Source of the DNA: a virus
Lineage: Duplodnaviria > Caudoviricetes
IMG/VR virus record: IMGVR_UViG_3300048898_000081
Location: 1 to 60,666 of that record
Reading direction: 5' to 3' (one strand)
DNA: 60,666 nucleotides
Positions 37,000-58,554 of the stretch are shown in pieces (positions within the stretch are counted from its first letter, which is position 1; the number at the start of each line of letters is the position of its first letter). A program made the translations under genes and the position numbers. The notes under the pieces were generated by a model that did no database searches, had not been told where the DNA came from, and saw only the letters and a program-made list of their open reading frames with translations.

Positions 37000-38646
37000 A
37001 TGGCGGTAGCCGGATATCAAATAAGGATCAACGGGGGATCCCCGATCAACGTAGGCAATGTGCTTACGACCACATTGTCTGCCTTGAGAGGCATCAGCCC
37101 GCCCCCGAACGAATCAGACGATTACGAGATCCGTGCGTTTGATAACGCCGTTGTTCCCAACTTCTCGGCATATTCCCCGCTCATCACGGTAAGGGTTCCG
37201 TCGAGTCTTGACGGAGCGAACATCTTCTGTACCGGCAATTCGCTGACGAGAGGATTCGGGGCGAGTGCCGGACAGGACTACCCGTCGCAGTTATTCGATC
37301 TTCTGACAGAAGCGGGCGTCGTAGGCCATACGGTCACGAACGTAGGGCACGACTCACAGACATCTTCTCAACTCAACGTAGAGGCGACGTTCGAGATTGA
37401 TCCTTTTCTCGACCCTGCCCGTCGAAACATTGTCATTTGCAACGAGATCGGCAACGATATTTACTTTAACGGCGATGTAGCCTCTGCTTTAGTCAATTTC
37501 CAAGCTCTTTGCGAGCACTGGGTTGGGAATCCGATACCGGTGGAAGTTGTGGTTTTAGGGCTTGCCGATCGCGGGCTTGACCCGACCATCGGGCCGCCTG
37601 TTCTGACGCCGTTTGGAGACACCCGGACACAGTACAGGACGAAAATGTCGGCCGCTGAGACCCTACTTGAGGCGACAGTCATGGGCTTTACGGGTGTCGT
37701 GGCGTTTTCGCGGCTCTTAAGCGACCCCGCATTAGCGAATTGCCTGAATCTGACGTATTTTTACGCGGATCAGACCCATAATCACGACGCAGGTTACGCG
37801 AGATATGCGGTCAATGGCTACAATGCTCTCGTTGGCATTGACTATACGGACACCTTGCCTCCGCTGATCTCCAGCATCACGGTCGAGAACGCCCATCCAA
37901 ATCAGGTTGTTTTCACCTACAACGAGCGGTTGAACGCGACGAGTATTCCCGCGCCGGGAGACTTCGCCTTTTCAGGCGGTAAAACGGCGACTGCCGTGAG
38001 CATCGCGTTGAACGTTGTCACCGTCACGCTCGATGGGTCATACGATTTTACCTCGACGATAACGGCGTCCTATACGCCCGGGGCAAACAAGATCAAAGAT
38101 CTCTCAGGGAACCTCGCAGCATCACTGTCAAGTCATGCGGTAGTAAACAACATAAACCCCGTCGAGATAGACCTTGTGTTCGAAGATTTTACTTTCATGT
38201 CGCAGGCGGGAACGACGCTAACCGCAGACTTCCCGGTCTCGATCTGGAACCATTTTGCAAAAGCTACATACAAATTGCCCGCTTCGACCGATGGATATAT
38301 CAAGGCTCGCTATCCGCAGGGGAATGGAACGATCCTTGGCTTTAAACTCACGAACGTAGCCTCGTCTTATAGCGGCATTGAATATTACGCATATCAAAGC
38401 GGGGGCGTCTGGTATTACGGCGGCAACGCAAGCCCCACTCCTACCGGCGTGGACTTCGTAAATAACGATTATGTGAAGGTGAGGCGAGTCGCGGGCGTGA
38501 TCTCGGTTTACCGCGAACGGGCCGGCCTCGACCAGCTTATCCACACATTCGGAACCGACAATTCAGAATTATTCATCAACGCAGTAATCGCTTTAGAACA
38601 CGATACGATCGAAGTGCCCGTGGGGGCGAATATTGTCCCGATATAA
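37000..38646 (+). CDS. FN3 C-terminal part + SGNH/GDSL hydrolase + SwmB-like repeat; virion-associated
   Basis: GNSLT, GND, DQTH; FTYNERLN...IKDLSGN. Confidence 0.75.
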   Translation: MAVAGYQIRINGGSPINVGNVLTTTLSALRGISPPPNESDDYEIRAFDNAVVPNFSAYSPLITVRVPSSLDGANIFCTGNSLTRGFGASAGQDYPSQLFDLLTEAGVVGHTVTNVGHDSQTSSQLNVEATFEIDPFLDPARRNIVICNEIGNDIYFNGDVASALVNFQALCEHWVGNPIPVEVVVLGLADRGLDPTIGPPVLTPFGDTRTQYRTKMSAAETLLEATVMGFTGVVAFSRLLSDPALANCLNLTYFYADQTHNHDAGYARYAVNGYNALVGIDYTDTLPPLISSITVENAHPNQVVFTYNERLNATSIPAPGDFAFSGGKTATAVSIALNVVTVTLDGSYDFTSTITASYTPGANKIKDLSGNLAASLSSHAVVNNINPVEIDLVFEDFTFMSQAGTTLTADFPVSIWNHFAKATYKLPASTDGYIKARYPQGNGTILGFKLTNVASSYSGIEYYAYQSGGVWYYGGNASPTPTGVDFVNNDYVKVRRVAGVISVYRERAGLDQLIHTFGTDNSELFINAVIALEHDTIEVPVGANIVPI

Positions 38647-47376: not shown

Positions 47377-50300
47377 ATGCCGGACGGAGATTTTCTCGCA
47401 GAACTTAAAAAACGTGTTGGCTATAATCAGCCATCATCGCCAGACCTCGCATCTCAGCGAGCCGCGATAGAAAAGGGCGCGTCTCAACTAGGCGTCGACC
47501 CCACAGACCTTGCCTCAATAATCAGCTTCGAATCAGCCGGAAGTTTCGACCCGCATAAGGTCGGCGGTGAAGGGAACAGATACCGCGGGCTTATCCAGTT
47601 CGGACCAGATGAGCAGAAAACCTACTATCATCCGAACGATACCTTCGAATCACAGATAGAAAACGGCGTCGTGCCGTATTTCCGCGACCGGTTCAAGAAA
47701 GCCGGGAAAGACACGAACGGCGCGACGTTAAACGACCTCTACACGACGGTCATCGCGGGCAACCCGAATGCGAACCGGAACAAGACGGATTCGTTCGGTA
47801 CGTCTGCGAATAGCGGTGTTCAGAGGATCATCAAAGAGCACCGCCCAGAGGTCTTGAAGCGATATGGCTGGCAAGACCCGAACTCGACTCGATGGGCCGA
47901 CCAGAATCGGCCCTCCACGCCTCAAATAGACGCCCGCAGCGAGCTTTCGAAGCTCTTTGGAGGACTAGACGGCACTACGCCATCTCAGCCAGCCACAGGC
48001 CCGACAAATCCCGTCCAGCAGACGCTTAAAACGCCGGGACCGATGCCGGAGACGCAGACCACACTTGATGCCCAGCGAGCGGCCGCAAATGATCCACAGA
48101 GTTCGCGCGTCGGCGTTCTCTACACACATCCCGAATCATCGCCAGCGAGCCAGAACGAGATAGATATACCCGTGTCGAACGGTCAAGTCCTGCGGGTCAA
48201 TCGCAATAAGTTTCTTCAGTACAACCAGCAGACCGGCATTACCGCTGACGATATCACTTCAGGTAAAGCTGACTTTACGCCCCTGATCGGTGGCAAAGCG
48301 GCTCCGACGGGCGAGCCGTTTGGAACGCAGGGACAGGTTGCCGTGATCAGCCATGATGCGAACGGCAATGAACTTGTGTCGTCAGCCGTGCAAGACCCGT
48401 CGCAGGTTCCGGCTGAAGCCGCGTTGCAAAAGAAACAGTTTCCGAATACCCCGATCAAAACAAGTGTCGTTCCGGCGAGTGCAGTCATAGCCGGGAGAAC
48501 GGCGGCGACTCCGACCCAAACATCTTCTCCGTCCGGGTTGCCGCCTACTTCTACTGACGATAAAGCCTATCAAGCGTATCTCGCGGATGTGGCGCAGAAT
48601 CAGCCGGGAGTTACGCCGATGAGTCGCGAACAATATGCGGCGTCGGGGAACTTTGGGAAAGGCGTTGAGACCAGCTTAAATCCGAGCGATTTCAAAACGG
48701 GCGAGACTCCGGTCACTTCATCCGAGCTCGAGCAATTCCAGCCGACGCAGGATGGCGGTCAAGTCAGCTTTGCTCGTGAACAGGGCAAGCCGTCCGACGA
48801 TCTGACTGGCAAATTCGGCACATATCAGCCAAGCGAAAAGATCACGAATCCCTATCAAGCTTATGCACAGGCTCTTACAAATGTCGGCTCGCGGTACGGT
48901 CTGACGCCGGACAAGGCTCAGGAATTTGTTGACAGGCTGAAATCTCATGGACGCGGAGCTTTTGCGAACGAATGGCAGCCGGGAATGCCGATCGCCATCA
49001 CTGGAAAAGTTCTCGAGCAAGCGGGCGTCTCGGACATCGGTGCGCAGTCTGAGATGGAGCAGGCACGGAATGCTCAAGTTCAGCCAGATCTAAGTGTGCC
49101 AAAGGATGATCGCACGGCATGGCAGGCAATTCGCGGCCTGACGCCGGGGCAGGCATCGTCAGAAAACGACTACCAAGGCGATACGACGGGAGCGGAGGAA
49201 TTTGGGAAGCAGGTTGGAGCCAATCCGATGAACGCCCCGTATGCGGGTGTAGCCGGGGGCGTCGCAGATGTCGTCGCAGATGCTCTGAATGTGTTAGGCG
49301 GCATTCATACAACCGGCGTGACAGGTCTGGCGGAGAACATCGCGAGTTTCTTTGGAGGGGCGCCGAGGGAAACGGCATCAGGTCTTGGTCGAGCGGCTAG
49401 CCAGTTACGAGCATTTTCGAAGGGCACTGAGCAAGATGGCTTGCTCTATCAAATCCCGAAAACCGGCACGGAGATCGGCGGCGAATTCCCAATGTATGTT
49501 GGAGCAACTGCCCTAGCAGGCGGCAATCCTATTTTGGGAATGGCAGGCCTTGAAGGACTAAAGAGCGTCGGCCGCGGCGAAGACCTCAAACAGAACGCGA
49601 TCGAGACGGGCAAAGGTGCTGTGCTCGGTGCGATATTCCACGGAGCGGGCAAGTTTGGAGACTGGGCTGGGAAGAAAGTCGCTGGAAAGTTTCTGTCTGA
49701 GGAGACGCTGGCGGCGTTGAATAACCCCGCTTTACGAGAAGCCTACGAAGCGGCGAAAGCTCGCGGTGAAAATGTCGAACTGACACCGGACCTAAAACGG
49801 GCCTTGGTCGCCAATCGGCTTGTCAGTAACGGTACTCGGTTGGGGGTCATCGGAGGAACCGGAACGGCCGCGGCGAAGATCGAGGGAAAAGATTGGAGAG
49901 AATCAGTCAAGCAAGGGGGAATCTGGGTCTTGCAGGATATGGCCCTGTCGTATCTCGCAGGCGGGAAAGGCCGGAAACTTGAAGACCTCGATAACAAAGT
50001 TGTTCGTGTTCCTGATGAGCAAGGTCAACCGAAAGACGTTCTGCTTCGCCTGAATCCCGCGAAAGAACTTGAGGCAACCGATGTCACGGGACAGGTGCCG
50101 AAAGAGGTTGTTGACGCCCAGATCTTGCCATCGACCGAGGAAATGCAATCGCGGGCTCAACAATTCGAGGGCGGACTAACCCCTGAAGAAAGCAAGCAGA
50201 TCACCGAGCAATACATCGACAAACAGGGTCGCAAATACACGAAAGTAGCCGACCTTGAAAACGGCAACGTCCAAGTCCGCGATGAGAAAAGCGTCGAGAC

Positions 50301-53300
50301 GCAGCAGAACCCGAAGAATCTGGAAAAGGTTTATCCCGAGAGGGCCGAAGGGTTACAGATGGAGGCTCCGAAAGAGTCGGTGGCGTTAGCCGCTCGGCTG
50401 CCAATCTCTCCAATTAATGCCACGCCGCTTCAGCCCAGTGACGATAGAATTGGAGGTGACACCAAAATATTGACTGATACGATACAAAGTCCAACCTTCC
50501 GCGAGAAAGGCTTTAACGGCCTTGATGTCCCAACTAGGGAAATGGTGGTGTCTGAGATGCTCCACGCGATCCATGACCCGAAGGTTCGAGATTTCGTTGT
50601 TCAGTTTGTTCCCGTCGATGTGGTGGACAATCTCCTCCGCATCAAGAGACCGTCCCAAGTGTTGTTCCATGATAATCCGGTGCTCAAAGACGCTCTTCCC
50701 GCCAATATTAAAAATCCGATAACCTTGGGCAGAGATACATCCCTTTCGTTGATAGATGCCGTGGCACACTCTACTGCAAAAAACACGTCCGAGCTTCCCA
50801 ACGTGAGATCGGTTTCGGAAGACTTGAATCCCGCAAGTGATGCAGTTATAGGCGGCGTTGCGGCTCGCAACGAAACATCGTCGGGAGCAGAATCCGTGTC
50901 CAATCCCACTAGGGCATCGGCTGAATTGAGTTCCGCATTGGGGACAAGTAAGATGAATCGGCATGGTGCTGAACCTCCAAGTGAAAGCACTGTGTCTGGT
51001 GAGCCTGAGTCAACTTCGGGCTCGCCTTCTATTTTACCACAAAAATCATTCCCAACGCCTAGTGTCAAACGTCCGATTGAGAAGTCGAAAACGGAGACAA
51101 ACGCCTCCGGCGAAAGTGCCGGGGGGACGGGGAAGGGGCAGATTCTTCCCGACATCGAAACATTCTCCGCTCAATCAAAACAATTGCAGTCCGAGGGATT
51201 TTCGGAGCCAGAAGCCCGTTTTCTAATTTCAGAACATTATGGCGAAAAGGCTCAGAAATTCAATACAACTGGGAAAGAATATTCGACTGTTGCAAAGATT
51301 AAAAAGACATTTCCGCAACTGGTAGAAAAAGGTTTTATCGACATCCCGACGCTGAAAAACACTGGCGTTATACGCCTAACTGAGAGAGGACGGAATTTCA
51401 CAAACATTCGACTCGGAGCAAAGCCTGAATCCCTCAAGCAAGTAGCCGGCATCCGCGGCGCACAAAACCTTTCCGATTCCGAGGCTCGCAAGCAGAATTA
51501 CGTCATCGCGAAGTCGATGGATGAAGCGGGTCGTGACTCGAAACGCATTTGGCTCGCGACAGGTTGGGAAAAGGGTAAGGACGGAAAATGGCGGACGGAG
51601 ATCGATGATTCGGACGCGAAACTCGTTCCCGATAAAGCCCTCATCGGCAAATCGGAATTACGGGAAATTCTGGACTTTCCTGAACTCTACAAAGCGTATC
51701 CTGAACTTAAGCAAGTGCCCGTCCATTTCGATGAGAAGATGGCTCCTTCGACGCGCGGAGCATTGGGTAAGGATCAGGACGGCAATACGATCATAGCCGT
51801 CAACGCGGGACTCCCCTACAAACAGATCAAATCGACGCTCTTGCATGAAATACAGCATTTCATCCAGAGGGAAGAGGGCTTCCCGACTGGCGGATCGCCA
51901 GAGGCGTCGGTTGATAAGAAAAAGATTCATGACCTCGAACATCAGATAAACGAGTACAACAATCAATTAGCTGAACTTGTCGGCAAGCCGAAGTATCAAA
52001 CAGTGATGTCCGACAAACTTGCGGCTGTTAAGGAGTTGCAGTCTCTCCAAGATGAGCATGGAAGTGCGTTGGGGAAAGGAGCGGAAAAATACAACCGTCT
52101 CGCCGGAGAGGTAGAGGCTCGCAACGTCCAATATCGCCACTACATGACGCCCGAGGAAAGGGCGAAAACGCCACTGTCTGCATCTGAGGATGTTGATCGA
52201 GAATATCAGAGTTTGAAGATGGCAGCTCCGAATGAGAAAGTGGGCCTTCATTCGATCTATAATGAAAACGGGAGCATAAATTATGACAAAGCAAAAGATG
52301 TCGCCGGAAGAGTTGAAGGAGGCGAGCTTGAGATTAACAAATATGATCCAGCAGTCGAGCAGGGAAGGATTGCAGGAGGTCGCAGAAATGTCGAGGCATC
52401 CCTTATCCTTGCCGGAAGCGAGAGAGCAATTCAAGAAACATCGTCAACAAGCGGTCATGGGGTGGAATCGCACCGCAGACAAGAAAAACTCTTAGAGCAT
52501 TACGCTAAACGCGAAGGCGTCTGGTTTCAACCGGGCCATTTTCCCGACCGTCTCTATCTAGGTAAAGGGGGTGAGGCAATTGTCTATCAAAAAGACCCGA
52601 GCCGTGTCGCGAAAACCATTGATTATCGTCATATCGATAAGAGCATAACGCCTCAAAAGTTCCTCGATACCAGAATCTCGCTATTTAACTATCTATTCCC
52701 GGAATCGCATTATGAACTGATGGGCTTTATGCGGGACGCGAATGGGAAGTTTCGCATTATCGTCACTCAGCCCTTGATCCAAGGCGAAAAAGTGCCGGAC
52801 GTAGCCGCCGTTGACGCTTTTATGTCCGACAGGGGTTTTGAACATGACGAAGGTAATTCGTATTCAAACGACCTGTATCAAGTTCACGATCTTCATGCGG
52901 GCAACGTTTTACAGAGCAAAGAGGGTACTGTTTTCGTTGTTGATGCCGTTCCAAAATTCGTAAACGCAGAACAGTATCCGGCGTTCAATGTTGCTGAACC
53001 AGCTAAAGAGACCGAAACATTGTCCAAAGTTGCCGACGCCGAATCCCAAGCCCGTCTTGTAGAACTTCTGCCATACGTCCACTCGCAGGACATCATGGAG
53101 AACGCCAAGTTCGAGCGGAAAGGCGATCACCTTGAACTCAATGAGGAAGGCGGGGAACTGCTTCGCCGGTTGATGGGAACCGAATCGGGCGAGAATGAAT
53201 CGAGCTTTTTCGGAGCAACGCACTCGGCTGCGAAGCTTAGAAAGTTGGGCGACTTGGCGATGGAGAAAGCCAAGGAATACGTCAAGGATTACGGCTATAC

Positions 53301-56300
53301 AAACTCTCAGGTACGAAGCCTGCGGGAGCTTGGCGATCATCTGAGAGGTCTTGCGAAATCGGGTAAAGCGGGAATCACGTACGTCTATGATGATTCGCTC
53401 CCTGAGGAAACTCACCACGCTTTGATACTCGATGCGGGCGGAATATCGCCGAAAGCTATCGTGACCCTGAAAGAGAATCCGCTTTGGAACTCCGAAAGAT
53501 TCGATCAGGAATATCCGAACGCCTCAGACCGCGTAAAGGCCATCGAACTTGCCGCCAAGCTCGAAACCGGACAGGACTATTGGCCCGAGGTCAGCGAGGC
53601 CGATAAACAGGCGTTCCTAAATGTGGTGGCCGATGATATCATAGACAGGAATACAAAGGACGGGGTGTTGACCCTCGACCCCGATGTATTTCAGAGGCTC
53701 ATATCTTATGGCACGACTGAGACCGGCAACGCCGAAAGAAGCGAAACGATCCAACCAGCAGAATCAGGAAGCGAAAGCGTTGGAGAACCTGGTGGTCCGC
53801 CGAGCGAAACAACGGGGCGTGAAGGTAAAGTTTCCACGCCAGAAGGCGACATCACTGGTAATGGAGCCGCCGAAACCGCTGCAGACGAGACCGGTGTCGT
53901 TCGACCAGCCGAAGAAGGCCAACCCGCCAATGAAGCAGAGCGATCGGCAGAGCGAGGATTAAAAGAACGGAAAACCGTACAATCCGCTCACGATTTCGGC
54001 ATCCTTAACAAAAATCTCAGCGGCGACGAAACCCGCTATTACGAGACGAAATCGAACGACTCGACCGAGCGAGCCGCACAAGACCACGTTGAAAAAGTTG
54101 GATTCTCGAATGCCTTTAACGAGGCGATACTTGCCCCGTCTGAAAACGTTTCCCGTCTTGAGCATACCGCTAATCAAATGGCGGTCTTGCAAATCCTTGC
54201 CAAGAACTCAGCCGACGCGTTGAACGCCGGAAATCAAGAACTCCACGACTATTACGAGGAACAAGCCCAAGCCGTGATGCGGTCGATGGCGCCGGAAAAT
54301 ACCGATGCGGGACAAGCCATTCAGCTATTGAGCCGTTGGAAAATTACCAATCCCGCGACCGTCATCAACTTTACGAAGATGAAGATGGCCCAGAAGGGAT
54401 TGAAGCCGGAGATCCCCGCCGAGACGCAAACAAAGCTGACGGAAAATGCCCAGAAGCTAACGGACGCTCAGGCGAAAATTGATGCCCTGAATGCAAAGAT
54501 CGAATCGCTCGAAAAAGGCAAGCGTCAGTACGAGAATAAGGGCAAGAAAACCAAGCCGCTGACCTCAGTTGAGAAACGGGTTTTGGACAGCCTTGAGAAG
54601 CTGAAGAATGACGCGATCGCTCGGCTGACTAAGGTGCCGGATTCGTTGAAGATGGTTGCCTGGCACGGCTCGCCTCACAGGTTCGATAAGTTCGACATTT
54701 CGAAGATCGGCACGGGCGAAGGTGCGCAAGCGTATGGTCACGGACTTTACTTCACGGACAAGGAAAGCATTGCAGACCACTACAAAAATAAGTTAGCCAG
54801 CAAGAACGGACTAGAAGTTCACTTTGCCGATACTAAGCAACAGATGATTATGCAGAAGATCGGGGATATGAACTTTTTCCCCGATCGGATGGATCGTTTA
54901 GCGCTCGGAACGCTATGGAACCATCGCGATATTGATAAAGCCCTGGCATTCGCCCGACAGCAGATCGCCGACAATAAGATTGAACGCGAACTATACCGTG
55001 AAATTGAGTCGCGTCTGAAGGAATGGAAAGATCGTGGGGCGTATGTTCTCGGCAATGAGGGAGCTAAATACAAAGTAGACCTCAAGCCCGAAGCCGACGA
55101 ATATCTTTTGTGGGACAAGCCTCTCAGCGAGCAGAGCGAGAAGGTGAAGAAGGGGCTGGAAAAGCTTCTCGACGACCAGACGCTTGAGGACATGGCGTTT
55201 CAAAATATCGCCGTTAATACCGCCGAATCACACCTCGACCCCGATGTAACGGGCATGGGATTGTACAAAGACCTTACACGGCTCTACGGCGATAAAGCCG
55301 ATGTGTCCGACGCTTTGCACACAAACGGCATCCGCGGCATCAAGTACCTCGCGGGCGATTCACGCAACAAAGGCGAAGGAAATTACAACTACGTCATTTT
55401 CGACGATAAAGACGTTGATATTCTCGACTCGTTCAAAATGGCGGCTCCGTCGCCTCTCGCCGATGACATCCGTAACGACCTAACCGACGTTGGAGCTTCT
55501 ATCTTGCTCGAAGGCTGGCACGGCGAACCGATCACGCCCGAACAATTTCATAAAGAATTGACAAAGCTCGTCGGAAAAGGTTACGAAGCATTTTACAAAC
55601 AGATTCATGCCGAGTCCGTCGCCAAAATGGACGCGCGGATAAAGGACGAAAAGCTCAAGGGCGAGCTCGACCGTTTGCGTGAGGCGAATCCCGATAAATC
55701 GGACGCGGAACTCGCCGAACTCAATAAAAAGAATAAGGCCGAGACGAAGGAAAAGAATCAGGTGCGGGCCGAGCATCGCAAACTCGCCAATGAATTTCTG
55801 AAGGCCCCGTCGAAAGCAGCCAAAGAGCAAAAGCTGACGGCTAAAAAGATCGAGGATTTTCTGAATGCCGCCGCCGAGACTGACCTGTTCGCAGATGACG
55901 CAACACTCGCCGCCGCTCTTGCCCGAGAATCGGGTGCCGTCGGAACGTCAGAGGTGATGTCGAGGCTCAAACAATTGATGCCCGAACGGTTCAAACCCGA
56001 AGCATCCGACACCATCACCCAGAGAAAAGAGAAACAGCGAGACCTCAATAACAGCGTTGCTGAGGGCGAGAAGCTATACAAGGCCGTCAACAAGGCACAG
56101 CAAGCCCGCAGGCAAGCTCTACGCGATCAGTTGGGCAACGTGTCGCCGGAAGCCCGAAAGGAACTGGAAGCGGCCAAGACCGCCCGGCGTGAGGCTCAAA
56201 GCGACCTGACCAAGATGGTCAAGCAGACGACCCAGCCGCCGCCGACGGTGATGCACAAGGTTGCTCAAATCTCCCGTGCGTCAAAGGTCGCACTTATCCA

Positions 56301-58554
56301 GACGGCCGTAACGAATGTCATCTCAACCAAGATCGAGCAGAACATTGCGAATAAGCCGATGGACGTGATGGACATCGCCCTGCAGCGGATATTCAAGGGA
56401 CTCAAGAATGAAGGTCTTTCCGGCGATGCATCGATAGCAACGGCACTATGGACGCCGAATCTGCATAAGCCCGTCGATGAAGTCGGATTTAAGGATTGGG
56501 CGAAAGGACTTTCCAAACACGAAGTTCTCCTAAAAGCCATCGACGAGCATCCGGAATATTTCGCGAAGTTCTTTGGCGACTTCTCGCCCGACATGCACTC
56601 CGGTCTCTCGAAGGTCATCGATAAGCTGATGATCCCGATGAGAATGCAGGAATTCTTTATGCGCGACTCGGCCGGCGTCAAAGCTTTGGCCCAGCGTGCC
56701 GAGATGAAGGGCATCGATTTCAAACAGGTGTTGGCGGACAACAATTTCGATTGGGTGACGAAAGCCGATCTCGACTATGCGATGAAGGAAGCCCTGAGCC
56801 TGACCTATGCCCTGCGGCCTGAGAGAAACGGCGGCATTACCGACACGGCATTTTCCAGCGTGACATCGTTAATTCGTTCATCCGGTCTGCTCGACCTTAT
56901 CGGATCCGAATCGTTCCCGTTCCTCAATTTCATGTGGAACACGATCAATAAGTACAAGACGAAAGTTCCGGTCATGGCTCAAGCCAGACTTATTGGAAAG
57001 ACCGTCTCGGAAGCGAAACGCCTGAAAGCCGAGGGTGAGGAGCCTAATTACATCAAAGAGGCCATCCGCAACAAATGGACGTCGCGGCAGATCGCGAACC
57101 AGATGTTCGGCGTTGTCGCTCTCGCGGCAATGTACGGAATCGTAAAAGCCCTGGGCGACCGTGACGAGTGGTACTACTTCAAGATACCGTTCACAGACGG
57201 TCTCGGACGCGACGGCGGATCACTCTACGGCGACATCCGCACGCAGCCTTTGCTGGCTCCTTTCATGTTCATTGCCAACAAGCTCAATCGCGTTCTCAAC
57301 GGGAAAGACCTGTTCACCTATGGCGATGCCGCAGACGAACTGACCGAGGCGTTTCTTGGCACGTCCTATCGCTCGACGTTCGACATGAATAAGGGATTCA
57401 AGGCTATCTCGCAATTCGCGCAGCATCCGATCACGTCCGCGAACTACATAACCGGACAGGGCGACGACGAGCAGAAAAACGGCGAAAGACTCTCGATGTT
57501 CGCCCAGCAATGGCTCGGGAATGAGTTTGGAACGCTGACGAATTTCCTTCAGTTCAAGACCATGAAGGACATCGCCGCCCAATTCGATGAGAAAGAACGA
57601 AAGCCACTGAACCTCGACGAGCAGCCGGTTTTACAGGGTCTCGATGCCCGTGTTCCGGAGTCTCGCCGCATCCTGCAGGACATCATCAAAATGCAGGTCG
57701 AGGCCAGAAAGAACTATGCGACGGATAAAGAACAGGTCCGGAACCCACTGCCGGCGTTGAAAGTTCTTGGGTTTAATCTCCACGACGAGGCCGATCTGAA
57801 ACCGGAGCCGACGCAGGCTGAAATACTGGCCGCGAAACTGGCTTTTGGCGGTGATGATTACAAAGCCCCGGAACTGCCGGACGAGAAGAAAAAGGCCGCG
57901 ATCAAACGAGACTTCCGGAAGGCAGGTGAGAAGCTAACGCCGGGAATGCCCGAGGCCGATGCACTCAAAGCGAAACTCGCAACCTATGGCGAAGACCTGA
58001 CGCCCGGACAAGTTGCTTATGCCCAACGCCATTTGTTCTCGACCGATCTGCAAGACCATTTCGAGGGGCTGAAGGTAAAAGATGCTGATCGCGTCTGGAA
58101 CGCCGCCACGCCCAAAGAGAAGCCGCTTATTGAGGACGCCTATCGAAAGAAACTCGATAACGCAATGACGAGCTCGAAAGCATCGCCGCCCGAAAAGAAA
58201 CAGGCCCGCGAATTGTTCCAAAAGAACTTTGGCGATGAGAATCTGGCTCCGGAGGCACCGAAAGAAATTCAGGATGAGTTTGACCGGTTAAAGATACCAA
58301 CTCCCGGCGTCGGCGATAAGATGACTTTGGTTCCGAAGGGTGAGAAAACTACCTTGTCGACCGATCGTCGCGAGAAATACGAGCAACAAGTCCTCAACCG
58401 CACCTACACGACGATCCAAAAGATCATGGAACGCGATTCGTACAAGAACGCTGACGATACCCGCAAGAAGATCATGCTCGAGAGTGTGATCAATACCAGC
58501 CGGAAGGTCGAACGGAACCAGACTAAAGGCGACCTGCTCAAAGCCCGTCAATAA
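47377..58554 (+). CDS. giant polyvalent virion/ejection protein: lytic transglycosylase, LPD23-type peptidase, kinase, degenerate zincin, ART-like domain, helical C-terminus
   Basis: IISFES...GLIQF; TGWEKGKDGKWRTEIDD, HEIQH, LAGEVEAR; GKGGEAIVY, HDLHAGNV, VVD; WHGSPHRF...GEGAQAYGHGLYF...NYVIFD. Confidence 0.9.
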   Translation: MPDGDFLAELKKRVGYNQPSSPDLASQRAAIEKGASQLGVDPTDLASIISFESAGSFDPHKVGGEGNRYRGLIQFGPDEQKTYYHPNDTFESQIENGVVPYFRDRFKKAGKDTNGATLNDLYTTVIAGNPNANRNKTDSFGTSANSGVQRIIKEHRPEVLKRYGWQDPNSTRWADQNRPSTPQIDARSELSKLFGGLDGTTPSQPATGPTNPVQQTLKTPGPMPETQTTLDAQRAAANDPQSSRVGVLYTHPESSPASQNEIDIPVSNGQVLRVNRNKFLQYNQQTGITADDITSGKADFTPLIGGKAAPTGEPFGTQGQVAVISHDANGNELVSSAVQDPSQVPAEAALQKKQFPNTPIKTSVVPASAVIAGRTAATPTQTSSPSGLPPTSTDDKAYQAYLADVAQNQPGVTPMSREQYAASGNFGKGVETSLNPSDFKTGETPVTSSELEQFQPTQDGGQVSFAREQGKPSDDLTGKFGTYQPSEKITNPYQAYAQALTNVGSRYGLTPDKAQEFVDRLKSHGRGAFANEWQPGMPIAITGKVLEQAGVSDIGAQSEMEQARNAQVQPDLSVPKDDRTAWQAIRGLTPGQASSENDYQGDTTGAEEFGKQVGANPMNAPYAGVAGGVADVVADALNVLGGIHTTGVTGLAENIASFFGGAPRETASGLGRAASQLRAFSKGTEQDGLLYQIPKTGTEIGGEFPMYVGATALAGGNPILGMAGLEGLKSVGRGEDLKQNAIETGKGAVLGAIFHGAGKFGDWAGKKVAGKFLSEETLAALNNPALREAYEAAKARGENVELTPDLKRALVANRLVSNGTRLGVIGGTGTAAAKIEGKDWRESVKQGGIWVLQDMALSYLAGGKGRKLEDLDNKVVRVPDEQGQPKDVLLRLNPAKELEATDVTGQVPKEVVDAQILPSTEEMQSRAQQFEGGLTPEESKQITEQYIDKQGRKYTKVADLENGNVQVRDEKSVETQQNPKNLEKVYPERAEGLQMEAPKESVALAARLPISPINATPLQPSDDRIGGDTKILTDTIQSPTFREKGFNGLDVPTREMVVSEMLHAIHDPKVRDFVVQFVPVDVVDNLLRIKRPSQVLFHDNPVLKDALPANIKNPITLGRDTSLSLIDAVAHSTAKNTSELPNVRSVSEDLNPASDAVIGGVAARNETSSGAESVSNPTRASAELSSALGTSKMNRHGAEPPSESTVSGEPESTSGSPSILPQKSFPTPSVKRPIEKSKTETNASGESAGGTGKGQILPDIETFSAQSKQLQSEGFSEPEARFLISEHYGEKAQKFNTTGKEYSTVAKIKKTFPQLVEKGFIDIPTLKNTGVIRLTERGRNFTNIRLGAKPESLKQVAGIRGAQNLSDSEARKQNYVIAKSMDEAGRDSKRIWLATGWEKGKDGKWRTEIDDSDAKLVPDKALIGKSELREILDFPELYKAYPELKQVPVHFDEKMAPSTRGALGKDQDGNTIIAVNAGLPYKQIKSTLLHEIQHFIQREEGFPTGGSPEASVDKKKIHDLEHQINEYNNQLAELVGKPKYQTVMSDKLAAVKELQSLQDEHGSALGKGAEKYNRLAGEVEARNVQYRHYMTPEERAKTPLSASEDVDREYQSLKMAAPNEKVGLHSIYNENGSINYDKAKDVAGRVEGGELEINKYDPAVEQGRIAGGRRNVEASLILAGSERAIQETSSTSGHGVESHRRQEKLLEHYAKREGVWFQPGHFPDRLYLGKGGEAIVYQKDPSRVAKTIDYRHIDKSITPQKFLDTRISLFNYLFPESHYELMGFMRDANGKFRIIVTQPLIQGEKVPDVAAVDAFMSDRGFEHDEGNSYSNDLYQVHDLHAGNVLQSKEGTVFVVDAVPKFVNAEQYPAFNVAEPAKETETLSKVADAESQARLVELLPYVHSQDIMENAKFERKGDHLELNEEGGELLRRLMGTESGENESSFFGATHSAAKLRKLGDLAMEKAKEYVKDYGYTNSQVRSLRELGDHLRGLAKSGKAGITYVYDDSLPEETHHALILDAGGISPKAIVTLKENPLWNSERFDQEYPNASDRVKAIELAAKLETGQDYWPEVSEADKQAFLNVVADDIIDRNTKDGVLTLDPDVFQRLISYGTTETGNAERSETIQPAESGSESVGEPGGPPSETTGREGKVSTPEGDITGNGAAETAADETGVVRPAEEGQPANEAERSAERGLKERKTVQSAHDFGILNKNLSGDETRYYETKSNDSTERAAQDHVEKVGFSNAFNEAILAPSENVSRLEHTANQMAVLQILAKNSADALNAGNQELHDYYEEQAQAVMRSMAPENTDAGQAIQLLSRWKITNPATVINFTKMKMAQKGLKPEIPAETQTKLTENAQKLTDAQAKIDALNAKIESLEKGKRQYENKGKKTKPLTSVEKRVLDSLEKLKNDAIARLTKVPDSLKMVAWHGSPHRFDKFDISKIGTGEGAQAYGHGLYFTDKESIADHYKNKLASKNGLEVHFADTKQQMIMQKIGDMNFFPDRMDRLALGTLWNHRDIDKALAFARQQIADNKIERELYREIESRLKEWKDRGAYVLGNEGAKYKVDLKPEADEYLLWDKPLSEQSEKVKKGLEKLLDDQTLEDMAFQNIAVNTAESHLDPDVTGMGLYKDLTRLYGDKADVSDALHTNGIRGIKYLAGDSRNKGEGNYNYVIFDDKDVDILDSFKMAAPSPLADDIRNDLTDVGASILLEGWHGEPITPEQFHKELTKLVGKGYEAFYKQIHAESVAKMDARIKDEKLKGELDRLREANPDKSDAELAELNKKNKAETKEKNQVRAEHRKLANEFLKAPSKAAKEQKLTAKKIEDFLNAAAETDLFADDATLAAALARESGAVGTSEVMSRLKQLMPERFKPEASDTITQRKEKQRDLNNSVAEGEKLYKAVNKAQQARRQALRDQLGNVSPEARKELEAAKTARREAQSDLTKMVKQTTQPPPTVMHKVAQISRASKVALIQTAVTNVISTKIEQNIANKPMDVMDIALQRIFKGLKNEGLSGDASIATALWTPNLHKPVDEVGFKDWAKGLSKHEVLLKAIDEHPEYFAKFFGDFSPDMHSGLSKVIDKLMIPMRMQEFFMRDSAGVKALAQRAEMKGIDFKQVLADNNFDWVTKADLDYAMKEALSLTYALRPERNGGITDTAFSSVTSLIRSSGLLDLIGSESFPFLNFMWNTINKYKTKVPVMAQARLIGKTVSEAKRLKAEGEEPNYIKEAIRNKWTSRQIANQMFGVVALAAMYGIVKALGDRDEWYYFKIPFTDGLGRDGGSLYGDIRTQPLLAPFMFIANKLNRVLNGKDLFTYGDAADELTEAFLGTSYRSTFDMNKGFKAISQFAQHPITSANYITGQGDDEQKNGERLSMFAQQWLGNEFGTLTNFLQFKTMKDIAAQFDEKERKPLNLDEQPVLQGLDARVPESRRILQDIIKMQVEARKNYATDKEQVRNPLPALKVLGFNLHDEADLKPEPTQAEILAAKLAFGGDDYKAPELPDEKKKAAIKRDFRKAGEKLTPGMPEADALKAKLATYGEDLTPGQVAYAQRHLFSTDLQDHFEGLKVKDADRVWNAATPKEKPLIEDAYRKKLDNAMTSSKASPPEKKQARELFQKNFGDENLAPEAPKEIQDEFDRLKIPTPGVGDKMTLVPKGEKTTLSTDRREKYEQQVLNRTYTTIQKIMERDSYKNADDTRKKIMLESVINTSRKVERNQTKGDLLKARQ
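50386..50964 (-). CDS. HNH homing endonuclease (Zn fingers + HNH_3 + HTH) nested antisense in the giant gene
   Basis: CPQC..FCSRRC x2, EHRIIMEQHLGR.L...EIVHHIDGNKLNNEISNL; GGAGGT RBS 8 nt upstream; TGGTAAAAT at 51031-51039. Confidence 0.9.
   Translation of the reverse strand: MPIHLTCPQCGTQFSRCPSGIGHGFCSRRCFVASRNAAYNCITCGIQVFRNRSHVGKLGRVFCSRVCHGIYQRKGCISAQGYRIFNIGGKSVFEHRIIMEQHLGRSLDAEEIVHHIDGNKLNNEISNLRVMDRVEHLRHHHFPSWDIKAVKAFLAEGWTLYRISQYFGVTSNSIVTGLKRRGINWRDWQPSG
52283..52495 (+). CDS. nested +1-frame 70-aa helical protein, candidate antitoxin of the kinase cassette
   Basis: TATAAT at 52258, GGGAG RBS 8 nt upstream; amphipathic helices. Confidence 0.55.
   Translation: MTKQKMSPEELKEASLRLTNMIQQSSREGLQEVAEMSRHPLSLPEAREQFKKHRQQAVMGWNRTADKKNS

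Follow-up and report, generated by a model that had tools for sequence, protein, structure and literature searches.

Giant proteins that combine several unrelated PolyVal/LPD effector domains in one chain are known as polyvalent proteins (Iyer et al. 2017). Phages and plasmids inject them into bacteria as a large arsenal, most of which is uncharacterised. The main text of the defining paper (PMC5512222) proposed that polyvalent polypeptides are processed by zincin-like metallopeptidases and that their cassettes recombine, and it cites processing of P1 DdrB and DarA; the choice between one chain and separate effectors has stood as a proposal since 2017. In MARTX toxins a protease within the chain cleaves at Leu residues located in unstructured stretches that separate the effectors (PMC2900308). 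Two giants analogous to the protein studied here, JC1 gp69 and phi24B gp47, have been detected in virions (available texts of PMC9144972 and bioRxiv 10.64898/2026.04.10.717836). Here we describe a short peptide, resembling SLKMAAP, that stands at module borders of a giant predicted polyvalent protein and has lineage-specific counterparts at the homologous borders of its relatives. The protein is encoded by the 60,666-nucleotide (nt) virus record IMGVR_UViG_3300048898_000081, which was analysed over its full length and is called the window below.

The giant open reading frame (ORF; 47377..58554, + strand) encodes a product of 3725 amino acids (aa), P0001. Its translation, Pfam matches and 119 giant homologs identify it as a predicted polyvalent, ejection-type virion protein. 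Pfam assigned LPD23 to aa 1369-1416 (49.8 bits, cut-off 27) and Kinase-PolyVal to aa 1701-1860 (52477..52956, +; E 5.1e-30, 105 bits, cut-off 27). With these two unrelated effector domains in one chain P0001 qualifies, by its sequence, as a polyvalent protein as defined by Iyer et al. (2017), and it adds a member to this known class. The NCBIfam search of P0001 returned no family. The 119 homologs, found in a search limited to proteins of 2048-6519 aa, share the Pfam set of P0001.

Six related heptamers lie in this ORF, all of them in frame and on the + strand. GLQMEAP (50350..50370, aa 992) is the first. SLKQVAG (51430..51450, aa 1352) forms the N-terminal junction of the LPD23-zincin cassette, and SLKMAAP (52210..52230, aa 1612) separates the zincin cassette from the kinase cassette. 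TLSKVAD (53017..53037, aa 1881), a degenerate copy of the junction peptide, opens the middle module, whereas SLKMVAW (54643..54663, aa 2423) and SFKMAAP (55429..55449, aa 2685) stand before and after a module resembling ADP-ribosyltransferases (ARTs). The first-pass annotation had reported these six positions and spacings of 260, 269 and 262 aa, and both proved to be correct. It had also noticed DNA common to three copies: TTNNANATGGNNGCTCCG occurs three times in the window, solely at 50353, 52213 and 55432. GLQMEAP is thus one of the copies that carry the DNA pattern; it is otherwise the weakest-supported of the six.

Module borders were located by BLAST, using full-length P0001 as query against the 119 giants. 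The ends of the 270 high-scoring segment pairs (HSPs) piled up at the motif: 52 HSPs started in 1350-1359 and 71 in 2420-2429, while 67 ended in 1610-1619 and 98 in 2680-2689. The number of subjects covering the query rose from 48 to 95 over residues 1351-1376 and fell from 90 to 29 over 1601-1626; around the ART-like module it rose from 51 to 111 over 2401-2451 and fell from 100 to 17 over 2676-2701. Site 1881 is also a border: the HMMER alignments of six relatives begin at query residues 10-15, which correspond to aa 1879-1884. In the AlphaFold models of the zincin cassette and the ART-like module the transitions between order and disorder fall on the homology-border residues. At site 992 a single relative (P0013) aligns across and has no motif there, and homology to other giants is lost about 50 residues downstream. 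The expectation that cassette breakpoints in relatives would map to the motif was therefore borne out by the HSP-end pile-ups. The earlier statement that the copies fall at domain borders holds for five of the six; for GLQMEAP no border was found. Together with the junctions of the relatives described below, the full-length homology steps show that the motif delimits real, independently shuffled cassettes.

At the homologous borders the relatives have kept the motif, each lineage with a variant of its own; a lack of conservation at the junctions, one of the refuting outcomes named in the first-pass annotation, was therefore not seen. The LPD23 family shows IRFMIVG, ILYQIAG, ILFSIIG and SLRMFAG at 1352, and P0002 aligns ILQAARI at 1612. 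The relatives have ILKMVAS, ILFKVAD, ALRKAPD, ILRHKAT, PLFKKAK and PLKRAEG at 1881, ILQMTAW, VLRMVAW, LRNIPAW and LFSSPAW at 2423, and ILQMARP, VLRSIPQ, ILRQIPK and ILKRIED at 2685. Read protein by protein, the junctions of one chain resemble each other: ILQAAR, ILKKSR, ILQMTA-W and ILQMAR-P in P0002; PLRSVP on both sides of the kinase, VLRMVA-W and VLRSIP in P0003; six copies of [PIV]LR.I in P0007; PLKRAE, LLKRIE and ILKRIE in P0393; ILRKVP, ILKKVR, ILRMVA and ILRSVP in P0423; ALRSIV, ALRSIP, ALRMVA and VLRSIA in P0378. Two more distant giants have peptides of another type. In P0012 the peptide is [IL]L[YF]Q, present in five copies. In P0112 it is LFSSP, whose six copies separate a zincin, the ART module, a segment without assignment, a helicase-methyltransferase block and a RadC block and all lie outside Pfam domains. 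The junction consensus is approximately x-[L/F]-[K/Q]-M-[A/V]-A-x, and in the wider clade [I/V/A/P]-L-[K/R/Q]-x-[V/A/I]-[A/P]; Leu or Phe and Ala-6 are the best-kept residues.

P0112, which provides the clearest example of such a junction code, is a protein of 6042 aa encoded by an ORF of 6099 codons in the locus L001 (IMGVR_UViG_3300043438_002023).

The similarity of junctions within one protein was measured on the flanks of ART modules. The alignment was anchored on conserved ART-module residues, and the 10 residues before the module were compared with the 10 residues after it. Flanks with at least four of six positions identical were found in 8 of 106 clusters (241 modules, 199 proteins) and in 0.74% of cross-cluster pairs. 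A second, independent set consisting of 50%-identity representatives, from which 10 tandem cases had been dropped, gave 13/109 against 0.74%. None of 10000 permutations reached the observed value in either set. Matching of the flanks is real, but it is not universal, and most lineages have no obvious match.

We then compared the codons of the copies, a check on protein versus DNA constraint that the first-pass annotation had recommended. Its alternative suggestion was that the motifs are microhomologies for cassette swapping; the junction would in this case be a site of cassette exchange or deletion by way of shared DNA, and the peptide a by-product. Breakpoints of relatives at the motif fit this explanation, as does the recombinational cassette variability raised in the main text of PMC5512222, but breakpoints at domain borders are expected under any model. 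Three copies carry TTNNANATGGNNGCTCCG, and in these Ala is encoded three times by GCT, a codon with a usage of 0.18. The remaining codons are mixed (Ser: AGT, TCG, TCG; Lys: AAG, AAG, AAA; Ala-5: GCA, GCG), and the longest exact run between any two motif sites is 10 nt. Pairs of the same residue in P0001 used identical codons in 9 of 19 cases, a weak excess over the 5.7 expected (P 0.09). L001 was the sole DNA of a relative that could be obtained; scans of IMG/VR with P0001, P0002 and P0007 gave no match. Its six LFSSP copies use four Leu, four Ser (AGC included) and three Pro codons, and the codons are identical in 23 of 75 pairs (24.3 expected, P 0.61). DNA identity at the joints in excess of what the peptide requires was thus found neither in P0001 nor in L001. 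A longer repeat is present in P0003, where the 16-aa direct repeat A-[TS]-TQE-[AT]-PEPLRSVP-[ED]-.. (aa 1963-1985 and 2238-2260) flanks the kinase; it exceeds the usual junction peptide in length, is compatible with a duplicated linker and would suit a recombination joint. Overall the codons drift about as usage predicts, and selection therefore acts on the peptide. What is constrained is the amino-acid sequence. Microhomology can have contributed little, if anything, and is very unlikely as the cause of the motif.

The reading that we favour, tentatively and as no more than quite possible, is that the motif is a putative recognition or cleavage site at which an ejected polyprotein would be dissected, as in MARTX. 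The giant protein would travel in the virion and enter the host by ejection, with a selected junction peptide at each border between effector modules, and one protease would recognise and cut this peptide, either before packaging or after ejection. Besides the border positions, the conservation in relatives, the matched flanks and the drifting codons, an intact-looking zincin in the chain and the flexibility predicted from motif position 4 onward at 1612 and 2685 speak for this reading, as do the zincin autoprocessing proposed by Iyer et al. (2017) and the precedent of MARTX. The products would be separate LPD23-zincin, kinase, middle and ART-like pieces. The embedded HExxH zincin and a phage head protease are the candidate enzymes. 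As in MARTX, a repeated consensus lies between effector modules, at five of the six copies in P0001 and at 3-6 junctions in the relatives; from the amino-acid constraint we infer recognition by a protease. A wider version, which we regard as possible but doubtful, is that the giant polyvalent proteins of phages are genuine polyproteins whose cleavage sites follow a code specific to each lineage, one that would co-evolve with a phage protease. Each cassette would then be bracketed by the same peptide, and kinase, ART, peptidase and other pieces would be freed after ejection.

Several results weigh against the cleavage reading, and they are given here with the explanations that compete with it. 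The first concerns chance. The motif carries little information, and its recurrence alone is no evidence. The pair SLKMAAP/SFKMAAP scores 29, whereas in an unbiased scan the best 7-mer pair averages 31.2 over 40 shuffles; the three-copy 6-mer triple totals 62, whereas the best triple reached 66-75 in 30 of 30 shuffles. A loose regular expression derived from the relatives matched P0001 four times against 2.0 expected, and 282 of 2000 shuffles reached four; three of its four matches are at borders. Thus the expected enrichment over shuffled sequence did not hold. A regular expression in the style of the first-pass annotation did give six matches against 0.012 expected (0/2000 shuffles), but this test is circular, and for TTNNANATGGNNGCTCCG, which matched in 0 of 100 shuffles, the pattern was composed after the sites were known. 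Screens of all giants for recurring peptides were of little help. Exact 4-mer recurrence was uninformative: a 4-mer with at least four copies was found in 69 of 120 giants, but when each protein was shuffled 20 times, 104 of the 120 produced one at least once; P0112 (six LFSS) and P0020 (seven GYDG) alone stood out. Re-occurrence of 5-mers was in 1.6-fold excess only (1.45 versus 0.90 per 10,000 aa).

These results would suit a coincidence, a low-information heptamer picked by eye in 3725 aa, because equally similar pairs and triples occur in every shuffle and the relatives-derived expression is not enriched. The placement of the copies argues against it. For this comparison, windows of +-8 aa were centred on the motif starts at 1352, 1612, 2423 and 2685, positions at which the homology and AlphaFold borders also fall. 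The highest-scoring triple across these borders reached 62, whereas 3000 randomly drawn sets of four positions gave a mean of 30.5 and a maximum of 53, so that none equalled it. The significance of the motif lies in the placement of its copies and not in their recurrence. Since the peptide is also conserved at homologous junctions and the flanks match in two independent sets, coincidence is hardly credible.

The second point is that the motif residues are partly integral to the adjoining folds. AlphaFold predicted the LPD23-zincin cassette (51439..52218, +; ordered core aa 1355-1614) with a mean predicted local distance difference test score (pLDDT) of 86.1 and a predicted template modelling score (pTM) of 0.78, and the ART-like module with a mean pLDDT of 83.0. 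At site 1352 QVA (1355-57) is in a strand, and pLDDT exceeds 90 from aa 1355. At 1612 SLK (1612-14) is ordered with pLDDT ~95, which falls to ~58 from MAAP on. VAWHGS (2427-32) at site 2423 is strand 1 of the ART-like fold, and SLKM is part of a 10-residue block with a mean pLDDT of 69. SF at 2685 closes the last ART strand (VDILDSF, 2680-86), and KMAAP has pLDDT ~58. Accordingly, the ordered positions of the motif are 1-3 at 1612, 1-2 at 2685 and 5-7 at 2423, and the chain is predicted to become flexible at position 4 in the 1612 copy and at position 3 in the 2685 copy.

Families of standalone proteins show the same overlap. SLKQVAG matches the N-terminal S-L-[GR]-[MI]-F-[AG]-G of the LPD23 family itself, 20 of whose 86 members have a loose form of the motif there (background 0.7%). 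In the alignment SLK at 1612 takes the place of the Q-I-V-R at the C-terminus of this family, and the standalone proteins end 2-5 residues later. The start of the ART family reads G-I-[RK]-A-[YFW]HGSP; standalone ARTs that begin just 8-10 residues upstream already have YLQAAW or ILESAW, and many standalone ART homologs stop two residues past the last strand. The similarity is partly intrinsic to the domains, and therefore a purely structural joint stays alive as an explanation. Positions 1-3 would cap the upstream domain and positions 4-6 would begin the downstream strand, no cleavage being involved, and the likeness within a protein would come from duplicated modules and from the strand or cap type shared by terminal elements in the clade. 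Tandem ART modules, in which the C flank is the start of the next ART, do occur in 10 of the 119 representatives. A joint of this kind would, however, have difficulty with peptides that precede unrelated folds (kinase, middle module, helicase, RadC) in one lineage while the flanks are unrelated, as do the six LFSSP of P0112 and the PLRSVP copies on both sides of the P0003 kinase. A generic strand pattern also leaves both the identity within proteins and the divergence between lineages unexplained, and site 2685 is not followed by an ART, the chain past SF being predicted to be flexible. On balance we consider the structural joint somewhat unlikely, but a serious rival.

The third point concerns the protease. 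The zincin cassette, matched by 98 of the 119 giants, contains the predicted zinc-binding and catalytic motif HEIQH (51844..51858, +). In 118 aligned sequences H1490, E1491, H1494 and E1500 are invariant, as are E1408 and D1411, so that the HExxH motif and the third ligand of a zincin metallopeptidase are both present. Comparison of the cassette with the PDB by Foldseek gave no match at E <= 1e-3, IrrE/PprI appearing only at E 1.6-3.4, and the Pfam match to Peptidase_M78 was weak (E 0.16). A second zincin-like unit is the middle module, aa 1881-2422. Here P0001 has PEETHH (aa 2009-2014; 53401..53418, +) where relatives align an HExxH: PHEEWH in P0002, PHETHH in P0066, PHELLH in P0004 and HEQVH in P0003, with EELVH in P0010; P0007 and P0026 have an HExxH in a similar local context. 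In P0001 and P0010 the module thus reads EExxH, with the first zinc-ligand His replaced by Glu, and to judge from these residues the P0001 middle module may be an inactivated or altered peptidase.

HExxH is not commoner in giants with matched ART flanks: the frequencies were 17/21 with matched flanks, 16/19 with three of six positions identical and 130/136 with at most two of six. HExxH is nearly universal in the giants (P0010, P0013, P0015 and P0121 are without it). A separate head protease is for this reason just as eligible as the cutter, if there is one; Pfam and PHROGs revealed none in the window, giving next to no annotation for the 10 large ORFs nearby. When the zincin cassette and the junction segment aa 2668-2712 were modelled as a complex, the score was 0.01 against a mark of 0.32, a value that speaks neither for nor against binding.

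The lack of a link to HExxH would fit a partner that is not a protease. The peptide could be a signal read by a packaging or scaffold factor, an unfolding chaperone or the ejection channel, marking modules that are left uncut. Selection on the peptide and co-varying sites within a protein fit such a signal equally well. Other giant delivered proteins, phage N4 vRNAP, ArdC and TraC1, are reported in the main text of PMC5512222 to be delivered uncleaved, and the literature searched holds no cleavage data for P0001 or any relative. For polyvalent giants generally, P1 DarB/DdrB and Bcep22 gp75 included, this literature gives virion detection of whole proteins only, and the available texts on DarB-like giants and phi24B gp47 (PMC9144972; bioRxiv 10.64898/2026.04.10.717836) report no fragment mapping. 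The window offers no candidate partner among its nearly unannotated neighbouring ORFs. We consider a non-cleavage signal unlikely. To our knowledge there is no precedent for a signal of this kind placed at every module, and we have counted this against it.

Two other origins of the motif were rejected. The Met codon of the motif does not appear to be an internal translation start: a Shine-Dalgarno-like GAAGGG lies upstream of 992 only, with none at 1612, 2423 and 2685, and nested products would extend to the end of the ORF. Nor is it a relic initiator of once-separate genes, as standalone ARTs begin 8-14 residues before the aromatic residue, elsewhere than at this Met.

The assignment of the module at aa 2427-2686 (54655..55434, +) is based on a sub-threshold Pfam match, homologs and the AlphaFold model. 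ART-PolyVal (PF18760) matched aa 2426-2492 with 25.6 bits, below the cut-off of 31.2. Among 8000 candidates scored, 6535 short homologs had E <= 0.001, and many of these carry PF18760; the invariant H-G-P..F..F start is kept. The module is, by homology, ART-like, and strict membership in PF18760 is not claimed. The first-pass annotation had described an ART-like domain bounded by motifs: the borders at 2423 and 2685 stand, and the ART-PolyVal match remains below the Pfam threshold. Foldseek found tankyrase, PARP14 and diphtheria toxin as weak matches, the classical ARTs all at E >= 1. The top match was the pre-ejectosome chain 9k3a_B of cyanophage A4 (E 2.5e-3, probability 1.00, TM score 0.38), and this model comparison hints that the ART-like fold also serves as a structural module of ejection proteins.

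ILLEGWHGEP is found 27 residues past SFKMAAP. Its EGWHGEP (55510-55530, aa 2712-2718) resembles the ART start MVAWHGSP with a 7-mer score of 30, which is within the shuffle range, and it may be due to chance or be the relic of a second ART start.

The GLQMEAP copy lies next to an ORF on the opposite strand. This ORF of 192 aa (50386..50964, -) encodes an HNH_3 endonuclease (Pfam E 2.2e-13, 50 bits, cut-off 24.8) and is located inside the giant ORF, codon-in-phase with it, opposite forward aa 1004-1196. It has no TTA, CTA or TCA codons (P 0.026 given its residues), and the forward frame is therefore open. The forward translation is of low complexity here, and forward aa 1051-1250 are covered by none of the 119 giants. 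GLQMEAP ends 16 nt before the stop of the HNH ORF. The HNH insert that GLQMEAP had been said to precede thus exists as a gene, but it is antisense within the ORF, and the border at GLQMEAP was not supported. From its sequence and position it looks like a mobile gene of the homing-endonuclease type that is tolerated in an inter-module segment. If giant polyvalent proteins are polyproteins with a cleavage code, this gene would belong to a stretch that is excised and discarded.

The genes of the record are nearly all on one strand. The N-terminal region of P0001 is probably lysozyme/transglycosylase-like: aa 29-132 (47461..47772, +) match phrog_4928, and in relatives Phage_lysozyme2 matches aa 40-150 weakly to moderately (P0003 above the cut-off, P0002 below it). 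We infer that P0001 travels in the virion and enters the host along with the DNA, because its gene ends the one-strand structural block, its N-terminus is lysozyme-like and analogous giants have been detected in virions elsewhere. Upstream, the ten large ORFs of the structural block at 24551-47371 are almost without Pfam and PHROGs matches; the sole matches are a GDSL lipase domain in ORF 37000-38646 and some weak tail-like ones. Megablast against phages gave no DNA-level match to the record, and on sequence criteria the phage is very distant from described phages.

In its composition, with LPD23, Kinase-PolyVal, ART-like and zincin modules, P0001 is a giant predicted virion protein of the same type as the polyvalent proteins of Iyer et al. 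(2017). The main text of PMC5512222 describes no junction or cleavage-site motif, though its supplementary alignments might show junction residues, and the main texts searched seem to contain no description of a junction code. Being recognisable in the sequence, the junction peptide specifies the exact residues for a test and makes the processing hypothesis directly testable; it delimits cassettes to which no function has been assigned and provides a handle on module exchange. If it is a cleavage code, the sequences of giant proteins from phages and plasmids would directly reveal the boundaries of their effectors. If it is a structural joint only, the motif still defines a grammar of modules.

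The gene order resembles that of the DarB-like giants of Bcep22-like podophages and of gp47 of the Stx phage phi24B, in which the giant ORF likewise ends the virion module and is followed by reverse-strand genes. The similarity to such proteins is limited to single cassettes: tblastn matches of P0001, which came from F116-like Pseudomonas, Burkholderia and Ralstonia phages and others, had 28-39% identity and covered 12-15% of the query.

The parallel with MARTX is in the general design, a large delivered protein with swappable central effectors, and the cut at Leu in MARTX may be compared with the Leu/Phe that is best kept here with Ala-6. The settings differ. MARTX has a cysteine protease that is activated by inositol hexakisphosphate (InsP6) in the eukaryotic cytosol, whereas here the zincin is the only internal candidate, the target is bacterial, delivery would be by phage ejection and cleavage is putative.

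Head proteases of phages provide a second comparison. T4 gp21 cuts L/I-x-E, and the phiKZ-like head protease cuts S/A/G-x-E. In these substrates and in viral polyproteins a short consensus is repeated within each virus and differs between lineages, as here, and packaged and ejected proteins are trimmed by the protease. Unlike them, the P0001 motif has no acidic P1 residue, and the search of the window for a head protease found none.

The pre-toxin junctions of polymorphic toxins, VENN in CdiA and DPxGL in Rhs, are a third type of short conserved peptide located where variable cassettes meet a conserved scaffold. They mark a single junction before the C-terminal toxin and coincide with the homology used for DNA exchange, whereas giants of the P0001 type have five or more junctions per protein, at which the peptide is kept while its codons drift.

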